From positions 1 through 63,197 of the forward strand of contig LCPL01000005.1 in NCBI GenBank assembly GCA_001003605.1: 63,197 nucleotides of DNA, in the 5' to 3' direction. The DNA comes from Parcubacteria group bacterium GW2011_GWC2_48_17. GTDB taxonomy: Bacteria; Patescibacteriota; Minisyncoccia; Phycocordibacterales; UBA10002. Under the pieces are notes generated by a model. The model did no database searches. It saw nothing but the letters and a program-made list of their open reading frames with translations, and was not told the origin of the DNA. Shown here one piece after another: positions 5,008 to 50,132 of the stretch. Both the position numbers and the translations under genes were made by a program. Within the stretch, counting starts at the first letter, position 1, and every line of letters starts with the position of its first letter.

Positions 5008-6186
5008 TTATATTGCGGCGAGCCCCCTGGAAAGGCCGGCGATAATATCCGAGACGTCCTCAAACCCAAGCGAGAGCCGGAAGAAGCTGTCTCCGATTCC
5101 GAGCGACCGCCGTACGTCGCTCGGAAGACTTTTGTGGCTCATAAGTGGGGGGTACGCGAGAATAGTCTCCGGACTCGCTAGACTCTCGGCGTAAACAATT
5201 GGACCTTCCTTTCTCGCGAAATCCACAAATGTTTTGAGTTTTTCCAGTCGTGTTTCCGTAAGTTCAAACGAGAGCACCCCGCCGTAACCGTGTCGCATCT
5301 GCCGTTTGGCGACCATGTGCCCGGGATGCGAAGGCAGACCTGGATAGAGCACCCGCTTCACCGTGTGGCTTTCGGAAAGAAACTTCGCCACGCGCATGGC
5401 GCTCTCACTCACTTGATTCCACCTTATCTGAAGCGTCTTCACCCCTTGAAGCACTCTATAGCACTCGTCGGGCGAGAGCACCGCCCCCATGGTCTTTAAC
5501 ATGAAGACCAGTCTTTCATAGAGCGACGCGTCTTTGGTGACGACCGCTCCGCCGAGAATATCGTTGTGTCCCGCAATGTATTTGCTCAAGCTGTGAATGA
5601 CGGTGTGCACGCCGTACTCAAAGGGCCGCGTGGTGCACGGCGGGGCGAAGGTTCCGTCAACGACAAACGGAATCGCTGTCTCTCGGGAAACCTTCGCCAC
5701 GAGCGCGAGGTCAATAACATGTAGGGACGGATTGGTAGGCGTCTCTACCCACAGCCATTTTGTGTTCGTTAGGATAGACTCGCGAATGCCTGCTTCTGAG
5801 CTGAAGTTGGCATAGCTTGCCGTAATGCCGAAACGATGGAGTAGTCCATCCAAGAGGCGAAACGTTCCTCCGTACACCTCCTCACAGCAGAGGACATGGT
5901 CCCCCGGCGAGAGTGTGAGCAAAAAGGCCGTTTCGGCGGCGAGGCCGGAGCCGAAGAGTACCGCCTTCCCCCCTCCTTCAAGGATTGCCAGCTTTTCCTC
6001 AAGCTTGTCGCGGGTCGGATGCTTCCCCCGGCTGTATTGGTAGGTCGCTTCCACGCCGAAGGTCGCTTGGGCGAAGGTTTTGCTGCGAACGAGGACGGGC
6101 GCTATCGCGCCGGTCGCCTCATCAGGAGCTTCTCCGGCATGCACGAGCAAGGTTGAGAATCCGGGCGAGTGTTTTGTAGTGTTCAT
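5008..6186 (-). CDS. PLP-dependent Cys/Met metabolism enzyme (cystathionine gamma-synthase, beta-lyase or methionine gamma-lyase family)
   Basis: 392 aa. The layout is conserved for this family, including the PLP-lysine region SLSKYIAGHND and the N-terminal STLLVHAG motif. Confidence 0.8.
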   Translation of the reverse strand: MNTTKHSPGFSTLLVHAGEAPDEATGAIAPVLVRSKTFAQATFGVEATYQYSRGKHPTRDKLEEKLAILEGGGKAVLFGSGLAAETAFLLTLSPGDHVLCCEEVYGGTFRLLDGLLHRFGITASYANFSSEAGIRESILTNTKWLWVETPTNPSLHVIDLALVAKVSRETAIPFVVDGTFAPPCTTRPFEYGVHTVIHSLSKYIAGHNDILGGAVVTKDASLYERLVFMLKTMGAVLSPDECYRVLQGVKTLQIRWNQVSESAMRVAKFLSESHTVKRVLYPGLPSHPGHMVAKRQMRHGYGGVLSFELTETRLEKLKTFVDFARKEGPIVYAESLASPETILAYPPLMSHKSLPSDVRRSLGIGDSFFRLSLGFEDVSDIIAGLSRGLAAI

Positions 6187-6749
6187 TTTTATGTTCTGTT
6201 TTTCTTGATGATTTGAAACGATACCCGTCGTTCCAGAAGAGCCGTGAGTCGTTCCTGTGAGGTCACACCGACCGATTCATCCTTGAAGACGCTAAAACGC
6301 GCGGTCCCGGCACGCAATATGCCGAGGCCCCGTATCATTGCCTCTCGGCTCGAAAATCGTGTCCGAGCAAAGATGGACTTTCTAAAAAGAAATGCGAACC
6401 ACATAGATTGTTGTCAACGAACACACCGCCCATAATCGGGCGGTGTATCAAGGAGATATTCCAAAAACTGAAACGTCGAGAGTCAGTTGTATCTTTCCCC
6501 GCGGGGCGGGGCTGGAATTGGCACTTTATCCTTACCAAAATGGAAGGGCAAGTTGCCGATGGAGCGTCGGGCCATAACCCTTCATATCTCCACACTCTTG
6601 ATACACTCGTGTATTTTCTGCTTCTATCTTATGCTCGCGCGTATGCAATGTCAAGCCGATTTCGTGATTTTCTTTTTCTTGACGCGCTCCTTAGTAGACG
6701 CTGTTAGAACTACTTTTGAGCGGCTCAACAAGCCCATAATGCATTCCGA

Positions 6750-9196: not shown

Positions 9197-9471
9197 CGCG
9201 GGGTGGAGTAACAGTAACTCGCAAGGCTCAAAATGGGCTGAACTCGGTGAAGCCTCATCTGCCAGATGGCGGATTGGTAATACCGAGCCAAGCCCGCCCA
9301 AATTTTGTAGAATAAAATTTAGGCGGGAAGGTGTAGAGACTAGACGGCGAGCCCCCGCTTTGGACGGGGTGAAGGTATAGTCCAGACCACAAATTCGCTT
9401 AAGGCGAAATGACGAAAGTCATAGCGGTATGCATAACCTTGAGATTCCGGGTGCGATTCCCGGCCCCGCAA
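9197..9471 (+). tRNA. initiator-like tRNA-Met (CAU) interrupted by a group I intron
   Basis: Exon 1: CGCGGGG TG GAGT AACAGTA ACTC G CAAGG CT. Exon 2: CATAA CCTTG AGATT CCGGG TGCGATT CCCGG CCCCGCA A. The C1xA72 mismatch is as in bacterial initiator tRNA. Confidence 0.85.
9229..9431 (+). ncRNA. group I intron (IC3-like, ORF-less) in the anticodon loop
   Basis: The 5' exon ends in U33 and the intron ends in G. The core strings CCGAGCCAAGC and GAAGGTGTAGAGACTAGACGGC match my recollection of the Azoarcus tRNA-Ile intron. Confidence 0.8.
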
Positions 9472-9476
9472 CAATC

Positions 9477-18366: not shown

Positions 18367-18840
18367 TTAATTATTCACGTCGTAGGTCCATGGGTCAGCT
18401 GTATCAGCGCCACTGAACTTTGTTCCGCCGCCCCAAGCAGTAGAGTTTGCGTCCGAATCGGCGGTATCAAGGGTAGTTTGAGTCATTGTTTGCTCCATGG
18501 TCGCCCCCAGATGATACTTAGTTGGGCTAGCGAGCGGGTCCCAAGAGAACTTGTAAGCTGACTGGTCTTTCGGGTCGGTTGGGAGTACTGGGAGCGAAGC
18601 TCCTGAACCCGAACCAACGAGCGACGAAAGCGCTACCGGATAAGAACCGTTGGCATCATAATAAAGCTCCATTGCGATTTGAATCTGCTTGAGGTCCGCT
18701 ACGCGGCGAGTATCGCGGGCCTTCGTTCGCGCGCTGTTAAGAGAAGCGAGTACCACGGAAGAAAGGATGCCGATGATTGCTATGACAACCAAAAGCTCAA
18801 TCAGCGTGAAACCGCGCGAGTTCTTCGAAGAAGAATTCAT
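18367..18840 (-). CDS. pilA: type IV major pilin
   Basis: The ATG at 18840 gives MNSSSKNSRG/FTLIELLVVIAIIGILSSV, a canonical class III signal with Glu+5. The gene has its own promoter-like sequence and terminator. Confidence 0.85.
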   Translation of the reverse strand: MNSSSKNSRGFTLIELLVVIAIIGILSSVVLASLNSARTKARDTRRVADLKQIQIAMELYYDANGSYPVALSSLVGSGSGASLPVLPTDPKDQSAYKFSWDPLASPTKYHLGATMEQTMTQTTLDTADSDANSTAWGGGTKFSGADTADPWTYDVNN

Positions 18841-19046
18841 TTGGGTGAATCCCTTGTGATTCGCCTTAGAGAAGAATTTCGACATACATAATAAAATTAT
18901 CGAGTAAAGGGCGTTAACCCATTTGTTGCGTCTTCACTCGGACGAAACGAAAGTCAGAAGAATTTTCATTTCGATCCTTGCTGGCCGCAATAACAACTTA
19001 AAGGCTCTCTTCCGACCGGTAAGAAAGCGCCACTTATTTTGACTCC

Positions 19047-19078
19047 ATTATAGTATACCGCTAAATAGGCATATTCAA
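19047..19078 (-). promoter_or_regulatory. sigma70-like promoter candidate for pilA
   Basis: The minus strand reads TTGAAT - 17 nt - TACTAT (overlapping TATAAT). Confidence 0.35.
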
Positions 19079-19112
19079 GTAAGTAACTGGGGATAAGTAC
19101 ACTAGGTAATAG

Positions 19113-20318
19113 CTACTCCCCTCCAACAATGCTGTAAATCGGCATAAGCACCGAAGCGAGCAAAAATCCCACCCCAAGGCCAAGAAGAACGATTAGGGCG
19201 GGCTCAATGAGCGACACGATGGTGTCAACCGCGTTCGTTACCTCACGCCGATAAAACCGCGCCATGGTTTCAAGGATATTGCCGGTTTCCCCGCTTTCCT
19301 CTCCCACCCTCATCATTTGAATCATGATGCCTGGAATAACACGACTATGGGAAAACGCATCGGAAATTGAAGAGCCGCCTTTAACTTCTTCCGCCGCGAG
19401 TATAATAGCTTTTTCGAAAATCGCATTATCCACCACTTCGGCCGTAATCTCAAGTACCCTTATTATGGGAATTGCCGCGGAAAGTTGCGTATGCATATTG
19501 TCGGAGATGCGTGAGAGATACAATTTTCTATATAGGTCACCAATATAGGGGAGTCGTATTTTAAGCTCGCTTAGCGCATAACGGCCGCCTTGTGTCCTTG
19601 AAAACCTCCATAGGAAGAGTCCGGCCACGATGAGAAGTACGAGCAAAAACCAGCCATAGTGAACGAAAAAGAAGCTCATGCCTAGCACAATTTTGGTATA
19701 GATTGGTATTTCCTGTCCGGATTCTATTAGAATTGAACTTATGCTAGGTATCACGGTCGTAAGCATTAGAATCATCACGCCGATAAATGTCACAATGACG
19801 AAAATTGGATAGACTAGAGCGCTCTTCGCCTTGGAAGTTACTTCATAGGTTCGTTCAAGATAGTCCGCCAAGAATCCGAATATCTTGTCGAGCCTTCCCG
19901 CCTCCTCGCCGGAACGCACCATGTTTACATAAAAACTGGAAAACGCTTGGGGATGTTTCCCCATTGCCTGCGAAATGGAGCTTCCACCCTGAAGGTCATC
20001 TGACACAGATGTGAGTACCTGTCGAAGCATTGGGTGGTCAATCTCACTAGCCAAGAGTCGGAATATTCTCATAGCCGAGACTTGCGCCTCAAATAGCGTG
20101 GATATCTGGCGCGAGAGAATAACGATATCCTTGCTTTTAATCCGCTTCCAAAAAGATAAATCGCGCTTAAAAATAGATGAACTCCCCGCAGGCGCGATGG
20201 TAGAAATTGTAAAACTTCGTTTCTGGAGCGCGTTAATAGCAACTTCTATGTTGAGAGCTTCAATACTCCCGTTTATAGCCCGTCCGGAGGAATCAGAGAC
20301 TTTGTAGATGAAGAGCAT
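19113..20318 (-). CDS. pilC: type IV pilus platform protein (GspF family)
   Basis: 401 aa with two GspF-type repeats and three TM segments. Confidence 0.85.
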   Translation of the reverse strand: MLFIYKVSDSSGRAINGSIEALNIEVAINALQKRSFTISTIAPAGSSSIFKRDLSFWKRIKSKDIVILSRQISTLFEAQVSAMRIFRLLASEIDHPMLRQVLTSVSDDLQGGSSISQAMGKHPQAFSSFYVNMVRSGEEAGRLDKIFGFLADYLERTYEVTSKAKSALVYPIFVIVTFIGVMILMLTTVIPSISSILIESGQEIPIYTKIVLGMSFFFVHYGWFLLVLLIVAGLFLWRFSRTQGGRYALSELKIRLPYIGDLYRKLYLSRISDNMHTQLSAAIPIIRVLEITAEVVDNAIFEKAIILAAEEVKGGSSISDAFSHSRVIPGIMIQMMRVGEESGETGNILETMARFYRREVTNAVDTIVSLIEPALIVLLGLGVGFLLASVLMPIYSIVGGE

Positions 20319-20319
20319 G

Positions 20320-20388
20320 GCGTGTAGCGTGTAGCGTGTAGCGTGTAGCGTGTCTGACTGTTTTGGACTTGCGTTACACGTTATACGA
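20320..20388. repeat. intercistronic word-repeat hairpin (GTGTAGCG)n ... CGTTACACGTTATACG
   Basis: GCGTGTAGCG x4 - loop TGTCTGACTGTTTTGGACTT - GCGTTACACGTTATACG. The arm ends 2 nt from the pilC ATG. Confidence 0.75.
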
Positions 20389-20401
20389 TTTGAGTTTCGC
20401 G

Positions 20402-21460
20402 TTATAACAACCGGTCCATTATCTGCGGATTAGGCGAATAGGCAAAAGCATTTTCGGCGGTAATCTCCCCTCTACGCACCAAATCCGCGAGGCTTCTGTT
20501 CATATCGGTCATACCCTGCTCAAGTCCGGTTTCTATAACGGTATTTATTTCATGCGTTCGCTTCTCTCTTATAAGATTAGCGACGGCATTATTCGCGATA
20601 AGGAGTTCATAAGCGGGTATTAGTCCTCCGGATATTCTCGGCACCAAGCGCTGCGAGAAAACTCCCGTGAGAGAAGAGGCAAGCTGAAGTCGTATCTGCT
20701 CTTGCTGCCCAGGAGGAAAGATATCGATTATGCGGTCTATCGACTGAGCCGCGTTGTTTGTGTGAAGCGTAGAAAATATAAGGTGTCCGGTTTCAGCGGC
20801 GGTTACAGCTGAGCTGATTGTTTCCTGGTCGCGCATCTCTCCTATGAGCGCGACATTTACGTCTTCTCGAAACATAGATATGAGCGCCGTGCGGAAATCT
20901 TTCGTGTCAATGCGCACTTCGCGCTGGTCAATAATAGAGAGCTTCTCCTCATATACATACTCTACCGGGTCTTCAATCGTCATGATGTGTTCGGAGCGGC
21001 TTCCATTAATTATTTCTATAAGAGAAGCCAGTGTGGTTGATTTTCCGTGCCCCATTGGCCCCACAACAAGAAAAAAGCCTTGTCTTTTTTTGGTAAACTG
21101 CCCAAGCGTCTCTGGAAGATTGAGTTCTTTTAGGCTCGGGATCTTTCTGGGGATTAGCCGAAGCGCGATACCGATGTTTCCTTTTTCGAAATAGGCATTG
21201 CCTCTGAAGCGTACTCTGTCGCCAAAATTATATGAAAAATCGATTTCTTTATTCTGCAAGAAAAGTCTCCTATCCTCCGAAGAAAGAATTCCTTCAATAA
21301 ACGCCGACAAATTATCCGCAGTAAGCAAAGCCTTCTTTACGAGAGGCGTAATCCCTCCAGAAACGCGGAGCACGGGGTGACGGCCTACCAAGAGGTGGAG
21401 GTCGGACGCGCCCTCGTGAATGGTCGTTTCGATGAGATTTGTTAAAAGTTCTTTGGACAT
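20402..21460 (-). CDS. pilT: twitching motility retraction ATPase
   Basis: 352 aa with Walker A GPMGHGKSTT, an Asp box, Walker B and the His box of the PilT/GspE family. It lacks the long N-terminal domain of PilB. Confidence 0.85.
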   Translation of the reverse strand: MSKELLTNLIETTIHEGASDLHLLVGRHPVLRVSGGITPLVKKALLTADNLSAFIEGILSSEDRRLFLQNKEIDFSYNFGDRVRFRGNAYFEKGNIGIALRLIPRKIPSLKELNLPETLGQFTKKRQGFFLVVGPMGHGKSTTLASLIEIINGSRSEHIMTIEDPVEYVYEEKLSIIDQREVRIDTKDFRTALISMFREDVNVALIGEMRDQETISSAVTAAETGHLIFSTLHTNNAAQSIDRIIDIFPPGQQEQIRLQLASSLTGVFSQRLVPRISGGLIPAYELLIANNAVANLIREKRTHEINTVIETGLEQGMTDMNRSLADLVRRGEITAENAFAYSPNPQIMDRLL

Positions 21461-21535
21461 AGCGTGTAGCGTGTAGCGTGTAGCGTGTAGCGCGACTCTG
21501 GCGTTATACGCTTTACGTTACACGTTTTGCGTTAC
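21461..21535. repeat. intercistronic word-repeat hairpin (GTGTAGCG)n ... (CGTTAYACG)n
   Basis: AGCGTGTAGCG x4 - loop - GCGTTATACGCTTTACGTTACACGTTTTGCGTTAC lies between the receiver gene and pilT. Confidence 0.75.
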
Positions 21536-21930
21536 TTTAGCTTCTTAGCTAAAATGGCTTTGACCTCTGCCACCACTTCCGATGGAGTAGCCGTTGCTTT
21601 CACTATATATCCGTCAACTCCTAGACTTTTGGCGCGTTCAATATCAGCGGATTGACTTGTGTTCGTGAGAACGAGTATCGCGGAATCTGGAGAAAGATGT
21701 TCATCTCTTAGCTTTTTTATGAATTCAAGCCCGTCCATAGTCGGCATTATAAGGTCACATAGTATCGCGTTTGGAGAATAGCCATCACGAAGCGTCCGTA
21801 GCGCAGTATCCGCGTTATTTGCCGTTTCAATGTCAAATCCGGAATTCTTGAATTTAAGCGCGTACATGTTCAAAAGGAACTGGTCATCATCAAGAAGAAG
21901 GAGTGAGGTCTTTTTCGGTTTAGTTTCCAT
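21532..21930 (-). CDS. single-domain response regulator (CheY-like receiver)
   Basis: 132 aa with LLLLDDD, the phospho-acceptor context LCDLIMP and a conserved Lys (YIVKA). Confidence 0.85.
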   Translation of the reverse strand: METKPKKTSLLLLDDDQFLLNMYALKFKNSGFDIETANNADTALRTLRDGYSPNAILCDLIMPTMDGLEFIKKLRDEHLSPDSAILVLTNTSQSADIERAKSLGVDGYIVKATATPSEVVAEVKAILAKKLK

Positions 21931-22048
21931 ATGCCTATTATAGCAGATACCAATATGCTAATGGGTACGAATGATACTAATAATACGAATACCGCGATTT
22001 CCTATTGGTACTATTCGTTTCATTAGTATACATTGGTATATTTAGTAT
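21931..22048. repeat. AT-rich word-repeat hairpin (TACGAAT / GGTAT words) with a TATAAT 6 nt from the receiver ATG
   Basis: The spacer between the pilB stop and the receiver start is filled by complementary arms. The minus strand reads GCTATAATAGGCAT-ATG. Confidence 0.6.
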
Positions 22049-23761
22049 CTATAATTTATTCACTTCTTCCCATGGAATCTCGTGTTTAAAAGCCTTGATA
22101 ATGGCATCTTCACGCAAAGTAAGCATGCCTTGCTTTCTTCCGACACGCATAATCTCCGCTTCAGACGGATTCTTTAATATGACTCCCTCAAGTTCACGGT
22201 CCATCTGAAGAATCTCGAAGACTGCCGCTCTGCCGCGCGTACCTTTCGGGCAATCGGGCGTGATGTCAATTAGAAGTACGTCCTTTGAAAAAGGAATGTC
22301 TTTCTTAAAGGCATCCGACAGGTCGCTAAAGTCCTTGTCAATCGATGCCTTGATGCTACCTTCAACCGGCACGACTTTCCCCGTATTGGGACAAATGAGC
22401 TGTACGAGACGCTGGGCTATCGCGAGAATAAGTGTTGGCGCTATGAGAAACGGGTCAACGCCCATGTCGATTAGGCGCGGAATTACTCCGGCGGCGTTGT
22501 TGGTGTGGATGGTCGAGAATACGAGATGTCCAGTGAGCGCAGCCTGTACGGCAAGTTGCGCGGTTTCTTTATCGCGTATCTCACCCACCATGATTATGTC
22601 GGGGTCCTGCCTTAGCGTGTGCCGAAGGCCTGCCGCAAAAGTATACCCAATTTCAGGCCGTATTTGCGACTGACTTACGCCAGGGATGTTGTATTCTACT
22701 GGGTCCTCAAGCGAGAGTACATTGCTTTTATCGCGGTCTATTTCATTTAACATCGTATACAAAGTTGTTGATTTTCCTGAACCTGTGGGGCCGGAAATCA
22801 GCACCATGCCATACGGACGCTGAATAGCCTCGCGAATGAGAGCGAGATTTCTTTTGGAGAGCCCCATCTCCTCCAATGGCTTCACTCCCTTCTCGGTGTC
22901 CAAAATACGCATCACGGCCTTTTCTCCGTAATAAGAAGGAAATGTGGAAACACGAAAGTCAATGCGGTGTCCCTCTATACGCGCGCTGAAGCGTCCGTCT
23001 TGCGGTTTTCTTTTTTCATCGAGTTTCATATTCGAGAGAATTTTTATGCGCGCGAGGAGAGCTGCGTGTACTTTTGTGGGGAGTATGAGTGAAGTGTTCA
23101 GAACTCCATCTACTCTGAAACGAACGCGGATTTCATTCCCCATATGTTCAATGTGGATATCCGAGGCGTTGCCCTCGGCGGCATAGTGCAATATGGTGGC
23201 CACGATTTTAGTTACAGGAGCGTCTTCTGTAATGCGGGTTTCTGCGTTCGCTCCGATAGAAGAAGCTCCATGGGTGGACGATTCTTCAGGACTTAGTTCC
23301 GTGTCGAGCTCGGATAGCGCCTGGGTTACTTCGCCGGATAGACCTTTGTACGACTGCAGTACTCTTTCAAAATCATCCTCCGATATGAGGTACAATTTAT
23401 ACGGCATGCTGAGCTTGGAGGATATGAAATTGATAGCATCCATCGCCTCCAGATTGTCCGGGTCTACGATGCCAAGAAGAAGAGCGCCATCAGTAAGTCC
23501 GATAGGTACGAAGCGATAGAATGTAGCCGATTCCTCCGGAACATATTTTAATATTTCAAAAGAGATATCTTTGCCTTCTAGGCTCTGAAATGGAATGCCG
23601 TGGAGTTCAGCCTTACCCGCAAAAATGTCTTCGCGTTTTAAGCCGTAGTTAATAAGAGCGGTCTCAATGTCCCCGCCGAGCGAGTTTGAGCGTTCGGAAA
23701 GCGCTGGAATATCGGCTTCCGATATAATTCCCTTTTTAGTTAAAATCTCAAGTAGTGTCAT
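22049..23761 (-). CDS. pilB: type IV pilus assembly ATPase
   Basis: GspE N-terminal domain and Walker A GPTGSGKSTT. I prefer the ATG at 23761 (MTLLEIL). The GTG at 23806 used by the ORF track lies inside a leader element also found upstream of glmS and rpmI. Confidence 0.85.
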   Translation of the reverse strand: MTLLEILTKKGIISEADIPALSERSNSLGGDIETALINYGLKREDIFAGKAELHGIPFQSLEGKDISFEILKYVPEESATFYRFVPIGLTDGALLLGIVDPDNLEAMDAINFISSKLSMPYKLYLISEDDFERVLQSYKGLSGEVTQALSELDTELSPEESSTHGASSIGANAETRITEDAPVTKIVATILHYAAEGNASDIHIEHMGNEIRVRFRVDGVLNTSLILPTKVHAALLARIKILSNMKLDEKRKPQDGRFSARIEGHRIDFRVSTFPSYYGEKAVMRILDTEKGVKPLEEMGLSKRNLALIREAIQRPYGMVLISGPTGSGKSTTLYTMLNEIDRDKSNVLSLEDPVEYNIPGVSQSQIRPEIGYTFAAGLRHTLRQDPDIIMVGEIRDKETAQLAVQAALTGHLVFSTIHTNNAAGVIPRLIDMGVDPFLIAPTLILAIAQRLVQLICPNTGKVVPVEGSIKASIDKDFSDLSDAFKKDIPFSKDVLLIDITPDCPKGTRGRAAVFEILQMDRELEGVILKNPSEAEIMRVGRKQGMLTLREDAIIKAFKHEIPWEEVNKL

Positions 23762-23860
23762 GGCTGATTTTTTTAACGAGCGGAGCGAGTTTTTAAAAAT
23801 CGCCACCCCGTTAAATCCCGCTCCGCGGGAATCCGCCTTTGGCGGATTATTTAACGGGGT
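23762..23860 (-). promoter_or_regulatory. shared 5' leader cassette (three-way junction), copy A, upstream of pilB
   Basis: The minus strand reads ACCCCGTTAAATA-[ATCCGCC AAA GGCGGAT]-[CCCGC GGA GCGGG]-ATTTAACGGGGT-GGCGATTTTT...AAAAATCAGCC-ATG. Confidence 0.65.
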
Positions 23861-45226: not shown

Positions 45227-45484
45227 TCAGGAGTAGATGTCGTGGTCGCCGATCTCATGAAAAGTTACCATCTGGTTTTCTCCAAACTCGAAGGTGATTC
45301 TGATTTTTCTGGTAACGAAAAACGCCCACAGGTCAGATAATCTCCCGTGCAACTTATGCGTTTCCAACCGTGCGTCAAAGGGATTCTGACGAAATATATG
45401 TTCTCTCACCTCCGCGCGTTGTTGAATATCGCGCTCAAGTTTTCGGTAGAGCCGCCGAAAAGTCGGGGAGTAGATAATCTGCAT
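45227..45484 (-). CDS. RelE/YafQ-type toxin (mRNA interferase family)
   Basis: 85 aa with HKLHGRLSDLWAF...RITFEF...FHEIGDHDIYS, typical of the family. Confidence 0.7.
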   Translation of the reverse strand: MQIIYSPTFRRLYRKLERDIQQRAEVREHIFRQNPFDARLETHKLHGRLSDLWAFFVTRKIRITFEFGENQMVTFHEIGDHDIYS

Positions 45485-45489
45485 ACTGG

Positions 45490-45729
45490 CTAACGCAAAT
45501 CTTTAAGTGATCGAAGAACTCTGCCTTTTCCAGCAGCAATTTCGGCTCGGCTTTTTTCCACAGTTCGCATCAACTGCTCCGTATTCCACACACGAATCAA
45601 ATGGCGCATGAACTCGCTCGTGGAAGCAAACTTCCCCGCCTTCACTCCGCGCCTAATGTCTACCACCATCTCTTTCGGCAGTGATATGTTTACGATGTTT
45701 CGCATATGCTCATATTTTAGTTGTAACAA
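45490..45729 (-). CDS. ribbon-helix-helix antitoxin
   Basis: 79 aa. NISLPKEMVVDIRRGVKAGKFASTSEFMRHLIR is a CopG/RHH pattern. It lies directly upstream of the toxin. Confidence 0.65.
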   Translation of the reverse strand: MLQLKYEHMRNIVNISLPKEMVVDIRRGVKAGKFASTSEFMRHLIRVWNTEQLMRTVEKSRAEIAAGKGRVLRSLKDLR

Positions 45730-45772
45730 TCTGTATTACAGAGTATAGCAAGTGCTACCTTCGCCGTCAAGC

Positions 45773-46357
45773 TCAAACGGTAAACTTATTTTGAGATGGC
45801 CATTCTTCTAATTCCCACTCTGCGACAGATTTGTACCTTTTTTTTCTTGCCTTTTCAGTAATCGCCATAATCGCCCGCTGATAATCGCCCTTTTGCATAT
45901 CCGGCCAAAGTGGCCCATCCCAGTCAATTTTACCCAACACTTGTCCATCAACTGGACAGTGTGGTGGATCAAAATCTATTTGGCGGGTACACCACAAGTA
46001 TTTCAAGTAAAGATTGACAAGTTTCTGAACAGTACCGAAGGTAATTTTGCTTTCGTTATCTTTATTAAGGATATCTGAAAATCCTTCATCCACTTCCTCC
46101 TTAAGCTTATCCATGCAATCTTCTAATTCCGCCGAGGACAGCTGTTTCTTACCTCGCCACTTAATATCTACATATTTTTCAAGAAATTCACGGAGAAAAT
46201 CTTTGAACTTTTCCTTCCTTTTGGTGTCGGGGAAGGGTTGATATACACCACGCTTACGCCCATCCTTTCCCTTGCCCCTTTGAGCAAATGCCGAGAAAAC
46301 ACTATTGCTAAAAAAGATATGTAACAAAAATTTCTTTTTTGGGTCGTCCATATCCAT
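45773..46357 (-). CDS. hypothetical protein
   Basis: 194 aa, Lys/Glu-rich with no motif recognised. It lies between the TA pair and the tRNA cluster. Confidence 0.4.
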   Translation of the reverse strand: MDMDDPKKKFLLHIFFSNSVFSAFAQRGKGKDGRKRGVYQPFPDTKRKEKFKDFLREFLEKYVDIKWRGKKQLSSAELEDCMDKLKEEVDEGFSDILNKDNESKITFGTVQKLVNLYLKYLWCTRQIDFDPPHCPVDGQVLGKIDWDGPLWPDMQKGDYQRAIMAITEKARKKRYKSVAEWELEEWPSQNKFTV

Positions 46358-46381
46358 AGTGGATTAGTTTATAACTCCTAA

Positions 46382-46453
46382 TACCCTCGGCAGGATTCGA
46401 ACCTGCAAAACCTCGGTAGAAGCGAGGCAGTTTATCCGTTAGCTTACGAGGGC
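46382..46453 (-). tRNA. tRNA-Arg (anticodon UCU)
   Basis: Reverse complement: GCCCTCG TA AGCT AACGGATA AACT G CCTCG CTTCTAC CGAGG TTTT GCAGG TTCGAAT CCTGC CGAGGGT A (G1-U72 wobble). Confidence 0.8.
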
Positions 46454-46553
46454 AAGACAAAGAGGCGCGACAGTTGCGCCCAAATCTTCATCTTCTCTTC
46501 CTCGTAAAAGAAAACATATTACTTAAGATAACAGAAATTACATAAATCTCCAA

Positions 46554-46774
46554 TCCGCCCCCTTGGACTCGAACCAAGAACCCCCGAGGTATATTTCATA
46601 TAATTGCTTCACTCGGACGAAAAACAAGAACGCTTTGCGCGTGCTAGGACTCGAACCTAGAACCCCCGAGGTATAAGCTCGGTGCTCTAACCATTGAGCT
46701 ACACGCGCATTTTTGTTTTTCGCTCCTCTCTAGCAATTATAAGCTCGGTGCTCTAACCATTGAGCTAGGGGCGG
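46554..46774 (-). other. split tRNA-like gene (anticodon UAU after joining) whose 148-nt intervening sequence contains a complete tRNA
   Basis: 5' half 46738..46774: CCGCCCC TA GCTC AATGGTTA GAGC A CCGAG CTTATA. 3' half 46554..46589: C CTCGG GGGTT CTTGG TTCGAGT CCAAG GGGGCGG A. The break is at position 37/38. Confidence 0.6.
46636..46708 (-). tRNA. tRNA-Ile (anticodon UAU)
   Basis: Reverse complement: GCGCGTG TA GCTC AATGGTTA GAGC A CCGAG CTTATAC CTCGG GGGTT CTAGG TTCGAGT CCTAG CACGCGC A. Confidence 0.85.
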
Positions 46775-46779
46775 GATAA

Positions 46780-46836
46780 CGCTCTTACCATTGCCTGTCT
46801 GCCGAAGCTTTTAGCGTAGGCAGAAGCTACGGGCGT
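46780..46836 (-). pseudogene. tRNA 5' fragment (acceptor plus D-arm) interrupted by a 31-nt hairpin
   Basis: ACGCCCG TA GCT[TCTGCCTACGCTAAAAGCTTCGGCAGACAGG]C AATGGTAA GAGC G. Removing 46794..46824 restores a perfect D-arm. There is no anticodon or T-arm. Confidence 0.6.
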
Positions 46837-46963
46837 ATGTTGAAATCGTAGCGCATATACGTCACTTTCGCAAAATCACTTAGCACATCTATTCCACTAT
46901 TCGCGCGAATAATGGAATAGATATGACTTGTTGGAGAATTTGGAATTTGTGGATTGTTTAGAA

Positions 46964-47020
46964 ATTAGGAATTACCTGCCCGCCGAAGCCGCTTCGGCGC
47001 AGGCGGGGATATTAGGAATT
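46964..47020. repeat. GC-rich hairpin element flanked by the 10-nt direct repeat ATTAGGAATT
   Basis: ATTAGGAATT-ACCTGCCCGCCGAAGCCGCTTCGGCGCAGGCGGGGAT-ATTAGGAATT. Confidence 0.7.
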
Positions 47021-47023
47021 GCA

Positions 47024-47061
47024 CCAGAAATAATCCGCCAGCTGGCGGATTATTTCTGGTG
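47024..47061 (-). terminator. hairpin at the ftsH 3' end
   Basis: CCAGAAATAATCCGCC-AGCT-GGCGGATTATTTCTGG overlaps the ftsH stop codon. It shares the AATCCGCC/GGCGGATT arm with leader cassettes A and B. Confidence 0.5.
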
Positions 47062-49023
47062 CTCTATGTCTTTCTTCTTTTTCGGCATGATGCCGTGCGC
47101 GATGATGATTTTTTCGTATTCTTCCTGCTCCAGCGTCTCAACTTCAATGAGCTTCGTCGCAATAGCATCAAGCGCGACGCGGTGCTTCACAAGAATAGTC
47201 TCTGCTTTTTTGTATGCCTCCGCGATGATTTTCGCGACTTCCGCGTCAATCGCGTCACTTACCTTCTCGCCATACTCTTTTTCCTCGTGGATGCGCTGTC
47301 CGCCGAGCCGGCCGAGCAATGTTTCAAATGCAATCGGACCAAGCTTTTCAGACATGCCGTATTTGGTCACCATGTCCCTTGCAAGCGCGCTCGCCACCTG
47401 GAGGTCGTTCGATGGACCGGTCGTGATATCGCCAAAGAGCATTTCTTCGGTGATAAAGCCTCCGAGCGTCACCGCTATGTCGTCCAAGAATTCCCTGCGG
47501 GATTGCAATTTTCTGTCCTCAAGCGGAAGCTTCAGCGTGTACCCCCCGGCTCGGCCTCTCGCGATGATGGAAACTTTGTGCACCGGGTCGGCGTACGGAA
47601 GCACCGAAGATACAAGCGCGTGTCCGGCTTCGTGATAGGCCGTTATTTCTTTCTCCTTTTCCGAAAGGAGATGGCTTTTCCGTTCCGGACCGAGCATAAC
47701 CTTTTCAATGGAGCGAATCAGGTCAAATTGAGCAACCTTGACCCGTTCCTCGCGCGCGGCAAGAATCGCCGCTTCATTTACGATTGAATGAAGGTCGGCA
47801 CCGGAAAATCCTGGCGTTCGTTCCGCGACAACGCGCAAATTCACATCTTCAGCGAGTTGTTTTTTAAGCGCGTGTACTTTAAGTATAGCCTCGCGGTCGT
47901 TTCGATCGGGAAGGTCTACGACAACGCGTCGGTCAAACCGTCCGGGACGCACAAGTGCGGAATCAAGAACGTCACTGCGATTAGTTGCCGCCATCACAAT
48001 CACCTTGTCATGCTGTTCGAATCCGTCCATTTCAACCAGTATTTGATTAAGTGTCTGCTCGCGTTCGTCATTGCCGCCACCGACTCCGGTTCCGCGCACG
48101 CGGCCGACCGCGTCAATCTCATCAATAAATACAATAGCTGGCGCAGCTTGCTTCGCGAGTTTGAAGAGGTCGCGTACGCGCGAAGCGCCGACACCGACAA
48201 AAAGTTCAACGAACTCCGAGCCGGATATAGAAAAGAAGGGTACGCCCGCCTCGCCAGCCACCGCACGCGCGAGAAGTGTCTTTCCGGTGCCGGACGCGCC
48301 CATGAGAAGCACGCCTTTCGGAATTTCCGCGCCGATATCCAAAAACTTCTTTGGGTTCTTCAAAAAATCAACAATCTCGGCGAGTTCCTGTTTTGCTTCC
48401 TTCACTCCGGCAACATCTTTGAATGTTACCTTCTGCTTTTTATCATGCGGAAAAATGATGCGCGGCTTTGATTGCCCGAAGGTGAAGGCCTGCATGCCGG
48501 CGCCCTTGACTTGCCGAGTTAAAAACCAAATGAATACGGCGATAAAGAGAATCGGGATGATGAACGGCGCGAGGTTGAGGAACCAATACCCGAAGCCTCC
48601 TTCTTTTTCCACGGAAATCTTGACATTCTGCAGCCGCTCGATTGGCACTCCGTAATTAACAAATGTCTGTGAAAGTCCGACTCCGGGTTCTTTCCGCGAC
48701 TGTTTTTCAATGTTGCCTTTTCCGTACAAAACTGTGACGGATTCCCCGGAAACTTTTATTTCAGTCACATCTCCGCGAGCTACATCAAAAGCGACTTCAG
48801 AAATTGGAACATCCGAAACGGGAGCGCGGTTCTCTGCGATGAATGAATACAGCGTCATAAGCGCAAGGAAAATGAAGAGCACTCCCATTGCCTTGTTCAA
48901 AAATTCGCGCCCGGGCTGAATTGGCGGGCTATTTTTGTCCTTGCTTCCCTTGTTAGAAAGCGTCTTGAGGACTTTTTTGCCTTTTTCCTTTACCTCTTTC
49001 ATGTTGTCTTTAAGGGGGGTCAT
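47050..49023 (-). CDS. ftsH: ATP-dependent zinc metalloprotease FtsH
   Basis: 657 aa with two TM helices, AAA+ Walker [12 protein letters not shown] and the zinc motif HEAGH. Confidence 0.95.
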
Positions 49024-49083: not shown

Positions 49084-49521
49084 ATGCTAATCGAAAATCG
49101 CAAAGCAAAATTCAATTATGAATTTCTTGAAAAACTTGATGCCGGAATCGAGCTTCTTGGCTCTGAAGTGAAATCTCTGAGGGCAAAACTTGGTTCGCTT
49201 GAAGGCGCTTATGTGATTGTCCGCGGTAATGAGGCATTCATGGTTGGCGCGTATATTCCCGCTTACCAACCTAAGAATACTCCAAAAGGTTACGATGAAC
49301 GGCGAAACCGTAAGCTCCTCCTCACAAAAAAGGAGATTGCCTCGCTCATGGGGGCAGAGGCAAAGAAAGGATTGACAATAGTGCCGATTTCAGTATATAA
49401 TAGGGGCCACAAGCTAAAGGTTACATTGGCAATCGCGCGCGGCAAGAAGAAATTCGATAAGCGCGAAACAATCAAACTGCGCGACACCGAACGCGACATC
49501 CGTCGTGAGATGCATGGATAG
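49084..49521 (+). CDS. smpB: SsrA-binding protein
   Basis: 145 aa with NRKAKFNYEF and GSEVKSLR motifs. tmRNA lies immediately downstream. Confidence 0.9.
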   Translation: MLIENRKAKFNYEFLEKLDAGIELLGSEVKSLRAKLGSLEGAYVIVRGNEAFMVGAYIPAYQPKNTPKGYDERRNRKLLLTKKEIASLMGAEAKKGLTIVPISVYNRGHKLKVTLAIARGKKKFDKRETIKLRDTERDIRREMHG

Positions 49522-49615
49522 GCTCGTACTTTGAAAATAACTGTCATTCGTCTTCAGTCCATGATTTATTCTTACCTTAATTCATACTTCATATCCCATA
49601 CTTCATAGCTTGAGG

Positions 49616-50038
49616 GGGGATGACAGGCATAGACATGTGGTCTCCTTCTTTCCGCGCATTGTGGAACTCCAGTAATTCCTTAAACTGCTGGAACAATTAA
49701 GTGCAAAAACCTTAATTTCAAAAGCTAAGTCTATCGTCTCACCATATTTTGGTGAACGCGGGCTCGCTTTCGCTTACGCTTCGGCGTAAGTGACATCTAT
49801 TTCCCCGACGTCCGATAGGGATACATAGGTGTTATAGATTCGGAATCGAGCGTGCCGCAGGTAGTCGTAGACTATCTCTTTCTCGGCTCACGCTTTAACT
49901 TTAGAGAATCGGCATCAAGACGCTTCTGTTACCCTTTTAGTCTTGATGTTTAAAACCCGCAAGGGTAAAGAGTAACTACGCAATGTAGAACCGGAAAAAA
50001 GAATCATGTGCACGCGCGTTCGATTCGCGCCATCTCCA
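49616..50038 (+). ncRNA. ssrA: tmRNA
   Basis: The 5' GGGGATG pairs with the 3' CATCTCC (G3-U70), followed by A. T-arm GCGCG TTCGATT CGCGC. Candidate tag frame 49724..49789: AKSIVSPYFGERGLAFAYASA-stop. Confidence 0.85.
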
Positions 50039-50132
50039 TTCGATTCGCTTGTATCAGAATACAAGCTCACTTGTGGTAAATCACTGCAAATACACCACCA
50101 GAAATGGCATAGTTAATGAGCATCATTGTCGC

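Follow-up and report, generated by a model that had tools for sequence, protein, structure and literature searches.

Introduction

In Archaea and eukaryotes, tRNA introns at position 37/38, one base 3' of the anticodon, are associated with a bulge-helix-bulge (BHB) motif, the splicing endonuclease EndA and the ligase RtcB. This position is the canonical one and is usually regarded as archaeal or eukaryal. Here we describe a bacterial locus in which a complete tRNA-Ile(UAU) gene lies at 37/38 of a second, split tRNA gene with the same anticodon. It is found in Parcubacteria group bacterium GW2011_GWC2_48_17, on contig LCPL01000005.1, of which we analysed a stretch of 63,197 nucleotides (hereafter the window). 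Similar to the archaeal and eukaryal introns, the insertion lies one base 3' of the anticodon and is a self-pairing intervening sequence beside the anticodon stem. Archaeal introns can also carry other RNAs (C/D box small RNAs), and processing stems release such embedded RNAs. Unlike these introns, the insertion has no helix-bulge-helix-bulge-helix (hBHBh') motif, its host is bacterial, the RNA inside is a tRNA of the same anticodon, and the interrupted outer genes decay.

Several other systems share features with this locus. The split, tri-split and permuted tRNAs of Nanoarchaeum, Caldivirga, Thermofilum and Cyanidioschyzon also have halves parted at or near 37/38. Split tRNA halves are held together by complementary leader-type sequences. 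A link to mobile introns has been proposed (PMC10714607, PMC4033280, PMC4390854). In contrast to those genes, our locus has its halves in normal order on one predicted transcript, with a whole tRNA between them, no BHB, and doubtful function of the halves. The group I introns of tRNA-Leu, fMet, Ile and Arg genes are closer in being bacterial, patchy, mobile and located in the anticodon loop, but the present insert has no group I core and is half tRNA. Integrative elements (P4-type integrases, islands) likewise disrupt an essential tRNA gene and bring a replacement, and the anticodon loop is a known integrase target. They replace the 3' segment only, are kilobases long and encode an integrase, whereas here a whole tRNA is carried in a 148-nt unit without genes and both displaced halves remain. 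Elements with inverted repeats that target TA, including the miniature inverted-repeat transposable elements (MITEs) of the IS630/Tc1-mariner group, offer short termini flanked by TA or TATA, a non-autonomous size and footprint-like remnants; our locus differs from them in its covarying termini, its tRNA cargo, its restriction to one locus and the lack of a linked transposase. Finally, the leader-trailer stems of rRNA operons (processed by RNase III in bacteria and through BHB in archaea) are long imperfect helices formed by the sequences on either side of a structural RNA. They have a conserved internal loop, which in our locus could be a site of cleavage or protein binding. Here, however, the stem encloses a single tRNA that is itself embedded in another.

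We found no description in the literature of tRNA-in-tRNA nesting or of tRNA introns other than group I in the candidate phyla radiation (CPR), although coverage was incomplete and an earlier description is possible. As the arrangement recurs in dozens of ultra-small bacteria (Patescibacteria/CPR), nesting appears to be a real and, within the literature covered, undescribed way to interrupt and replace a tRNA gene. The reading we favour, with a probability of about 0.55, is that time and again a structured cassette with its own replacement tRNA has inserted into the resident tRNA-Ile(UAU) gene and split it, and that the innermost gene works while the shells around it are co-transcribed relics.

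Results

A complete tRNA-Ile(UAU) gene lies between the halves of another

The whole nest reads on the minus strand. The outer 5' half, positions 1-37 of a tRNA-Ile(UAU) that we call the middle layer, spans 37 nt (46774..46738) and reads CCGCCCC TA GCTC AATGGTTA GAGC A CCGAG CTTATA, comprising acceptor strand, D arm, anticodon stem and loop. Spacer 1 (29 nt, 46737..46709) leads to the inner, complete tRNA-Ile(UAU) with acceptor GCGCGTG (73 nt, 46708..46636), which is called as tRNA-Ile(TAT) by ARAGORN and matches Rfam RF00005 at 75.1 bits. Spacer 2 (46 nt, 46635..46590) leads on to the outer 3' half (positions 38-73, 36 nt, 46589..46554), which reads C CTCGG GGGTT CTTGG TTCGAGT CCAAG GGGGCGG A and completes the acceptor stem (7/7), the anticodon stem (5/5) and the T stem (5/5). 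When the outer halves are joined, ARAGORN calls a tRNA-Ile(tat) with all stems perfect. The initial annotation had described these halves, spacers and inner tRNA correctly to the base, and its break at 37/38 holds, with the qualification that insert and 5' exon both end in TATA, which leaves the exact break free to shift over as many as 4 nt.

On the intact locus, ARAGORN and Rfam report the inner gene only, and even the intron mode of ARAGORN misses the outer one until the inner is masked. The initial annotation had proposed a run in this mode, and with the inner tRNA shuffled ARAGORN -i reports a single tRNA-Ile with a 148-nt intron. The 148-nt insert contains no open reading frame (ORF), and about half of it is tRNA. 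Its two spacers form an inverted repeat (I1) with 35-nt arms that are 74% complementary and exactly 73 nt, one tRNA length, apart. The minimum free energy (MFE) fold of the locus contains both spacer-spacer helices (z = -5.25), which together with I1 bears out the earlier proposal that the spacers pair. A pattern describing the nested arrangement had no match in 100 shuffles of the window. The nested double cloverleaf, at -72.5 kcal/mol against -89.3 kcal/mol for the MFE fold, is uninformative, as isolated tRNAs do not fold as cloverleaves in the model either.

The inner and outer tRNAs of the window differ at 10 nt, which make up five fully compensated stem pairs and nothing else. This bears on the concern, raised in the initial annotation, that the nest is an assembly chimera, a misjoin of two tandem tRNA-Ile genes induced by repeats. 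Direct repeats of 30 nt and 32 nt are shared by the inner and outer copies and might in principle mislead an assembler, but a misjoin cannot create compensatory differences between inner and outer stems, nor would it yield the same order with different sequences in about 45 contigs that are independent of one another and stem from many studies and assemblers, as described below. We therefore give this explanation practically no credence, and the concern is refuted.

Nests recur in independent assemblies, at one orthologous locus

We scanned two collections, and the loci compared carry L-numbers. Scan 1 covered one genome per species, with the 5' half of this tRNA type as query and no condition on what comes after the anticodon. 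Among the 120 loci listed there were three further nests (L063, L078, L096), the rest including ordinary tRNA-Ile(UAU) genes, and none of the 122 matches listed was an anticodon-loop insertion without an inner tRNA. Scan 2 covered metagenomes of the Joint Genome Institute (JGI) with a pattern consisting of a 5' half ending in CTTATA, 20-42 nt, and then TAGCTCA; it returned 60 loci, of which about 45 are distinct nests. Both scans were restricted to one pattern (GGTTAGAGC D arm, CTTATA loop). The order is the same in every nest: 5' half, 14-34-nt spacer, complete tRNA-Ile(UAU), spacer of about 37-76 nt, 3' half. The assemblies are independent, come from many studies and assemblers, and include a 2015 groundwater metagenome-assembled genome (L063) and contigs of up to 510 kb.

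Of 51 distinct loci, at least 24 resemble the window in having an FtsH homologue as their immediate upstream neighbour on the same strand. The same synteny is seen at many un-nested tRNA-Ile(UAU) genes of Patescibacteria, so this is one orthologous locus that exists in both states. The comparison of this locus among related CPR genomes, another suggestion of the initial annotation, thus brought up recurring nests and not only simple tandem tRNAs. On a rough neighbour-joining tree of FtsH, the nested state is patchy: it falls in at least 8 clades, with one deep clade (subtype 2, described below) wholly nested.

Across the DNA retrieved for all loci, 53 of 174 tRNA-Ile(UAU) genes have half-copies beside them, compared to 5 of 252 other tRNAs. 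One of these five, at about positions 2170-2550 of locus L054 (contig CAYOXM010000030.1), is a complete tRNA-Val(GAC) between the halves of another tRNA-Val. Perfect 13-bp inverted termini (TCCCCACACCTTT / AAAGGTGTGGGGA) abut the halves, and the outer anticodon loop is short of a few bases. Nesting is thus not strictly confined to tRNA-Ile(UAU).

The insert flanks form a covarying structure

Across loci, the insert opens with a strand of 5-9 nt, P1, that pairs with the bases immediately 5' of a small terminal hairpin, P2 (TATAT-loop-ATATA). The end of P2, usually ...ATA, lies exactly at position 38. In the window (all minus strand), spacer 1 consists of the P1 5' strand ATTGCT (46737..46732), a loop strand AGAGAGGAG (46731..46723) and the 5' strand of a second helix, P1b, CGAAAAACAA (46722..46713), which reaches up to the inner acceptor stem. 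Spacer 2 supplies the P1b 3' strand TTGTTTTTCG (46627..46618), the opposite loop strand TCCGAGTGA (46617..46609), the P1 3' strand AGCAAT (46608..46603) and hairpin P2, TATATGAAATATA (46602..46590), which ends at the junction.

P1 was assessed with an anchor that is independent of it, namely whichever TATA comes first within the final 30 nt of spacer 2. At the anchored register, 13 of 15 loci have all five P1 positions paired, and they do so with 12 different sequences; at any shifted register the count is 0 of 15. All five pairs have changed on both sides in the fixed-length alignment. The covariation score is 0.613 compared to 0.179 in shuffles (0 of 500 reach the observed value) and at most 0.148 with the partner slid. 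A joint test of P1 and P2 gives a Fisher p = 5e-8. Helix length against shuffles in single loci is not significant for a P1 of 5-6 bp. The spacers also fold better in the sense than in the antisense direction (-24.0 vs -21.1 kcal/mol, p = 0.009). These results show that the insert flanks are under selection for structure.

In the larger subtype, to which the window belongs, P1 is followed by a conserved, purine-rich internal loop with ARNGAR in its 5' strand and GARYGA in its 3' strand (AGAGAG / GAGTGA in the window), which could form tandem sheared G.A pairs. Subtype 2 (L127, L141, L154, L162, L168, L178) has a longer P1, a GC-rich P2 and neither the purine-rich loop nor a TATA between P1 and P2; tRNA-Val and tRNA-Leu come next after the nest. 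A candidate mini-ORF in spacer 1 (an apparent Shine-Dalgarno sequence followed by ATG-NNN-GTG-TAG) was dropped, as it is not conserved and is missing from L078 and L096.

Comparison with introns and split tRNAs

An Rfam scan at E<=1 over 45500-48000 returned tRNAs and chance matches only, with no Intron_gpI in the insert. We rejected a group I intron, in agreement with the initial annotation: the insert has no core (P3-P8, RF00028), while the same method finds the intron of the window's tRNA-Leu. That tRNA-Leu(CAA) gene (9197-9472, plus strand) carries a 203-nt intron in its anticodon loop. The intron matches Intron_gpI with E = 1.7e-7 but, at 36.1 bits, does not reach the gathering score of 50; it is probably a divergent group I intron of the kind known from bacterial tRNA-Leu. 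No Rfam family of self-cleaving ribozymes (hammerhead, twister, pistol, hatchet, HDV-like) matches at E<=1.

An intron at 37/38 of an otherwise complete tRNA is an archaeal-type feature that the window does show. We searched for the corresponding motif in strict form (helix, 3-nt bulge, 4-bp helix, 3-nt bulge, helix, with the splice sites in the bulges) at all junction registers. As controls served two metagenome contigs returned by scan 2 (L126, L175), presumably archaeal, in which tRNA-Ile(UAU) has ordinary archaeal-type introns of 47 and 43 nt at 37/38. Both controls were positive, the window was negative, and weak matches occurred in 3 of 25 nested loci. Neither a splicing endonuclease (EndA) nor a ligase is found among 28 proteins scanned in the window, which covers 63 kb of the genome. 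The explanation put first in the initial annotation, functional paired halves or an archaeal-type intron, finds no support in these analyses, with no BHB at the junctions while two archaeal controls pass.

Another explanation is a new kind of intron. In this explanation the outer pre-tRNA would be cut after A37 and before N38 and religated, giving a second functional tRNA-Ile(UAU). The cut could be made, for example, by an endonuclease at the three-way junction where the anticodon stem meets P1 and P2, with an RtcB-type ligase to reseal the ends, and RNase P and RNase Z would free the inner tRNA. Several observations fit. Every break falls at 37/38 and the inserts end in ...ATA, P1 covaries and together with P2 brings both junctions to one three-way junction, sense folding beats antisense as given above, and the pseudo-symmetric, purine-rich loop suggests a dimeric RNA-binding protein. 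Outer tRNAs without a flaw in 23 loci, the window included, and one compensated pair change between the window and L133 (see below) fit as well. Against these stand the BHB results, the absence of any match to a ribozyme or intron family, and the damage seen in about 45% of outer tRNAs, with the window's outermost shell dead. The outer gene is also redundant, because the inner one has the same anticodon, and inserts lacking an inner tRNA, which would be tolerable if splicing worked, are absent among the 122 matches listed from scan 1. We consider such an intron rather improbable. It is tempting to speculate further that Patescibacteria possess a third route of tRNA splicing, neither group I ribozyme nor BHB endonuclease, and that the cassette is a true intron cut at the three-way junction. 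The purine-rich loop would then be a protein handle, each transcript would yield two tRNAs, and reverse splicing or homing into the embedded tRNA of the element itself would explain the recursive nesting. We hold this version to be slightly less probable still.

The outer halves could also work without being spliced. As a split tRNA, they would stay paired after RNase P and RNase Z have removed the inner tRNA and would function, unligated or ligated in trans, as in Nanoarchaeum. While the perfectly complementary outer acceptor and anticodon stems and a P1 helix that would hold the halves are in keeping with this, a tRNA with an open anticodon loop and tails of 29 and 46 nt cannot decode, archaeal split tRNAs are joined via the BHB that is absent here, and the outer shells decay. 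This makes a working split tRNA very improbable. A split gene of the Nanoarchaeum type was also rejected on its layout: here both halves lie on one strand, separated by 148 nt, they share a single upstream element, and there is no BHB.

The window holds three layers of tRNA-Ile(UAU)

The closest relative still holding the locus is L009, whose FtsH is 86% identical to that of the window. In L009 the 5' half of an ACGCCCG-type tRNA-Ile(UAU) is still intact. Next come a P1 arm that contains no tRNA, a P2 arm that does, and the matching 3' half. The P2 arm (TATATGAATT...AATTCATATA) carries an uninterrupted CCACCCC tRNA, which is the ortholog of the window's outer tRNA and 3 nt from it. In L052, from the sister lineage, an ACGCCCG-type tRNA is un-nested.

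Next to its outer 5' half, the window has the decayed 5' part of an older ACGCCCG-type tRNA-Ile (46775..46836, minus strand), the outermost shell. It reads ACGCCCG-TA-GCT, a 31-nt hairpin and then CAATGGTAAGAGCGTTATC, is truncated at the anticodon arm, and has no surviving matching 3' half. The initial annotation had noticed this third fragment with its hairpin. It is real, at 46836..46775, and since it shares the upstream element and ACGCCCG-TAGCT...CAATGG with the outermost 5' half of L009, we assign it as the ortholog of that half, a decayed and still older shell rather than an unrelated fragment. The comparison with L009 thus implies that the window holds three layers, that its innermost tRNA was inserted after the lineage had parted from L009, and that the oldest shell is dead.

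The hairpin is a GC-rich palindrome (TCTGCC...GGCAGA CAGG) that splits the D loop of the outermost shell (46824..46794, minus strand). A copy 84% similar to it (repeat family D3) lies at about 46971-46989, 180 nt upstream, in the ftsH-tRNA spacer. Other loci have small hairpins of a similar kind: dead tRNA shells of L063 and L112 are full of them, and in L151 and L160 they break up the T arm. The middle-layer nest and 21 nt of trailer are bracketed by a 6-nt direct repeat, GTTATC (46775-46780 and 46527-46532, minus strand), which may be due to chance (roughly 2% by our own estimate) or may be the scar left when the anticodon arm and 3' half of the outermost shell were deleted.

The relationships among the tRNAs are at odds with those among their hosts. 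The window's joined outer tRNA is 1 nt from the tRNA of L001, though the FtsH of L001 is only 66% identical, and it is 14 nt from that of L018 (FtsH 90.7%) and 20 nt from that of L052. For the window's inner tRNA, the nearest sequences come from other lineages (L067, at 5 nt). By these distances the tRNA tree disagrees with the FtsH (host) tree.

Outer genes decay and nests probably rearrange

Among the approximately 42 loci that could be assessed, 23, including the window, have an outer tRNA with acceptor, anticodon and T stems all intact. About 45% are damaged, by mismatched stems, T-arm hairpins (L063, L151, L160), or degenerate or missing halves. An intact inner tRNA is called by ARAGORN in nearly every nested locus. 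Leftover shells also occur at loci scored as un-nested (L066, L067, L087, L097).

Inner and outer tRNAs differ by between 0 (L127, L155, L157, L176) and 26 nt. The leaders before some outer genes repeat spacer 1 (L078, L155, L179, L180), and multi-layer or triple nests or surplus 5' or 3' halves are present in L173, L163, L142, L141, L154, L155 and L179. Identical copies, repeated leaders and surplus halves are what would be expected of unequal recombination and gene conversion between halves once a nest exists, and an un-nested gene with a leftover shell would be the reciprocal product.

Insertions are seen in other arms of tRNA genes as well. Bacteroidota tRNAs with a palindromic insert in the T arm occur in Ferruginibacter (L119, 330-560) and Mucilaginibacter (L050, about 5230-5330); in L119 the insert, GCCTGCCTGCCGGCAAAGGCAGG, lies in two neighbouring tRNAs, one of which ARAGORN still calls as a 96-nt tRNA-Ile.

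Comparison of the cassette with mobile elements

In the DNA fetched, the cassette is seen only at tRNA-Ile loci and once at tRNA-Val. Two kinds of element could be rejected on their structure. An IS200/IS605-type element does not fit, as the insert has a hairpin of its own (P2) at the right end only and its left end pairs with the right spacer; a tRNA island mediated by an integrase does not fit a 148-nt insert without ORF and with both displaced halves present.

More can be said for an actively transposing or homing, non-autonomous, MITE-like element with P1 as its inverted termini and a duplication of TA or TATA, which would target the TATA of the anticodon loop and be mobilised in trans by a transposase or homing endonuclease, with P2 as a footprint or an internally deleted second element. 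The window shows TATA, then ATTGCT...AGCAAT, then TATA again, and most subtype-1 loci have the layout TATA, inverted termini, TATA, short palindromic remnant, TATA. The P2 arm of L009 amounts to a complete cassette, TATA-TGAATT...tRNA...AATTCA-TATA, and the 13-bp termini at the tRNA-Val(GAC) of L054, the patchy distribution and the incongruence of tRNA and FtsH trees also agree with mobility. A gene for a GIY-YIG nuclease inside the L112 nest (see below) would fit a homing endonuclease, but its homologues at other loci are kilobases from the nest. Further, the termini differ from locus to locus and covary, unlike the inverted repeats of one family to which a transposase binds; an extra TGAAA-TATA follows the terminal TATA; subtype-2 loci lack the TATA between P1 and P2; no dispersed copies exist within the window; and no transposase is among the 20 window proteins scanned, which are housekeeping or type IV pilus proteins. 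We regard an active element of this kind as unlikely, if worth keeping in mind, and it overlaps with the cassette reading that we favour.

The L112 nest (Parcubacteria Gr01-1014_31; positions 795-1500 of the locus) is complex. It begins with a 5' half riddled with hairpins, followed by a tRNA-Ile with a GC-rich T-loop insertion of about 85 nt. The GIY-YIG nuclease ORF (PF01541, E = 1.4e-15) comes directly 5' of an intact inner tRNA, and the nest ends in a 3' remnant carrying the same T-loop insertion. L112 is the only locus with this gene within the nest.

Neighbourhood of the nest

The conserved upstream neighbour, ftsH (Pfam Peptidase_M41 and AAA), lies at 47050..49023 on the minus strand. 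Between it and the nest, a possible promoter read from the sequence, TTGCGA, 17 nt, TACGAT (46845..46873, minus strand), recurs in L009, before its outermost tRNA, and in L133, before the outer one. It scores below the threshold of our consensus promoter scan but would drive a single transcript through all shells. The scan gave no match in the spacers or upstream of the nest, so that an internal promoter for the inner tRNA is unsupported. Downstream, a terminator-like hairpin (46463..46481, minus strand; a consensus match only) separates the nest from tRNA-Arg(UCU) (46381..46454, minus strand; ARAGORN and Rfam), which is a neighbour outside the nest.

Two perfect or near-perfect loopless palindromes of 42 nt (21-nt arms) lie between ftsH and the nest, at 47021-47062 and 46884-46925, and the first also scores as a bidirectional terminator-like site. 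Beside ftsH and divergent from it are smpB and, directly following, the transfer-messenger RNA gene (tag AKTLISKAKSIVSPYFGERGLAFAYASA; 49084-50041, plus strand). A 194-aa ORF beside tRNA-Arg (45773-46357) has no Pfam match. Downstream of the tRNA cluster lies a toxin-antitoxin-like pair (45227-45729, minus strand) in which one member weakly matches a YafQ-like toxin (E = 5.6e-4) and the other is a ribbon-helix-helix protein (E = 2.5e-3).

Farther away, an S-adenosylmethionine (SAM) riboswitch (RF00162, 48.1 bits; 6486-6607, minus strand) sits upstream of a gene of the cystathionine gamma-synthase / methionine gamma-lyase family (5008-6186, minus strand). A type IV pilus cluster (PilB, PilT, PilC, pseudopilin) occupies 18367-23806 on the minus strand. 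Type IV pili of this kind in CPR bacteria are thought to serve DNA uptake or host attachment, and the cluster is relevant here only as a possible route for cassette exchange.

Discussion

The initial annotation had offered, as its second choice, an insertion cassette with inverted termini and a replacement tRNA. The comparative data favour this reading, because the outer tRNA is uninterrupted in L009, shells decay at many loci while an intact inner tRNA is called in nearly every nest, and the third fragment is an older shell. Under it, the locus would be a stack of tRNA-Ile(UAU) genes, each inserted at 37/38 of its predecessor. The unit inserted would be a complete tRNA-Ile(UAU) with two spacers that pair by P1 and P1b around the purine-rich loop and end in P2. 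The innermost tRNA, presumed to be the working gene, would be transcribed together with the shells from the upstream promoter and freed by ordinary end-processing through RNase P, RNase Z and/or exonucleases; the leader-trailer helix (P1) may serve as a processing or insulating stem. The outer halves would be the former resident gene, which is not rejoined and decays over time. In an existing nest, recombination between the repeated halves could add, remove or homogenise layers, and homologous recombination with incoming DNA could carry the cassette between lineages.

Several observations weigh against this reading. The spacers have no further copy within the 63-kb window at up to 3 mismatches, and nothing that would mobilise the cassette, whether enzyme or mechanism, was identified. 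The outer tRNA of the window has no flaw. In L133, a sister with the same insert and spacers 89% identical to the window's, the outer tRNA differs by one compensated pair, C7:G66 in the window and U7:A66 in L133, which hints at either continued selection on outer pairing or independent acquisition of the insert by two resident alleles. Long-term covariation of P1 and a conserved loop exceed what a dead insertion needs, and require either a role at the level of the host or selection at the level of the element. The frequencies of nests are also rough, as both scans were limited to one pattern and scan 1 to the matches listed.

It is possible that the flanks and the pairing between outer halves are selected because they stop these near-identical halves from pairing wrongly, within the shared transcript, with an inner tRNA that is essential. 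If so, decaying outer genes would be reconciled with a flawless outer tRNA in the window and a maintained P1.

Nesting adds to intron, split, tri-split and permuted genes as a mode of tRNA gene disruption, and does so in Bacteria, at 37/38. Because tRNA finders report the inner gene only, outer shells and stumps are silently missed in thousands of CPR genomes, or could be taken for pseudogenes or errors of assembly. Covariation in the helix and conservation of the purine-rich loop suggest a so far undescribed interaction between RNA and protein, in organisms that cannot yet be grown alone. We take this tRNA-Ile(UAU) to be essential, single-copy and the only reader of AUA in these TilS-independent lineages. 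An essential tRNA gene that is repeatedly overwritten by a cassette with its own replacement would be a compact model of selfish gene replacement, and nesting also models how split or intron-bearing tRNAs could arise.

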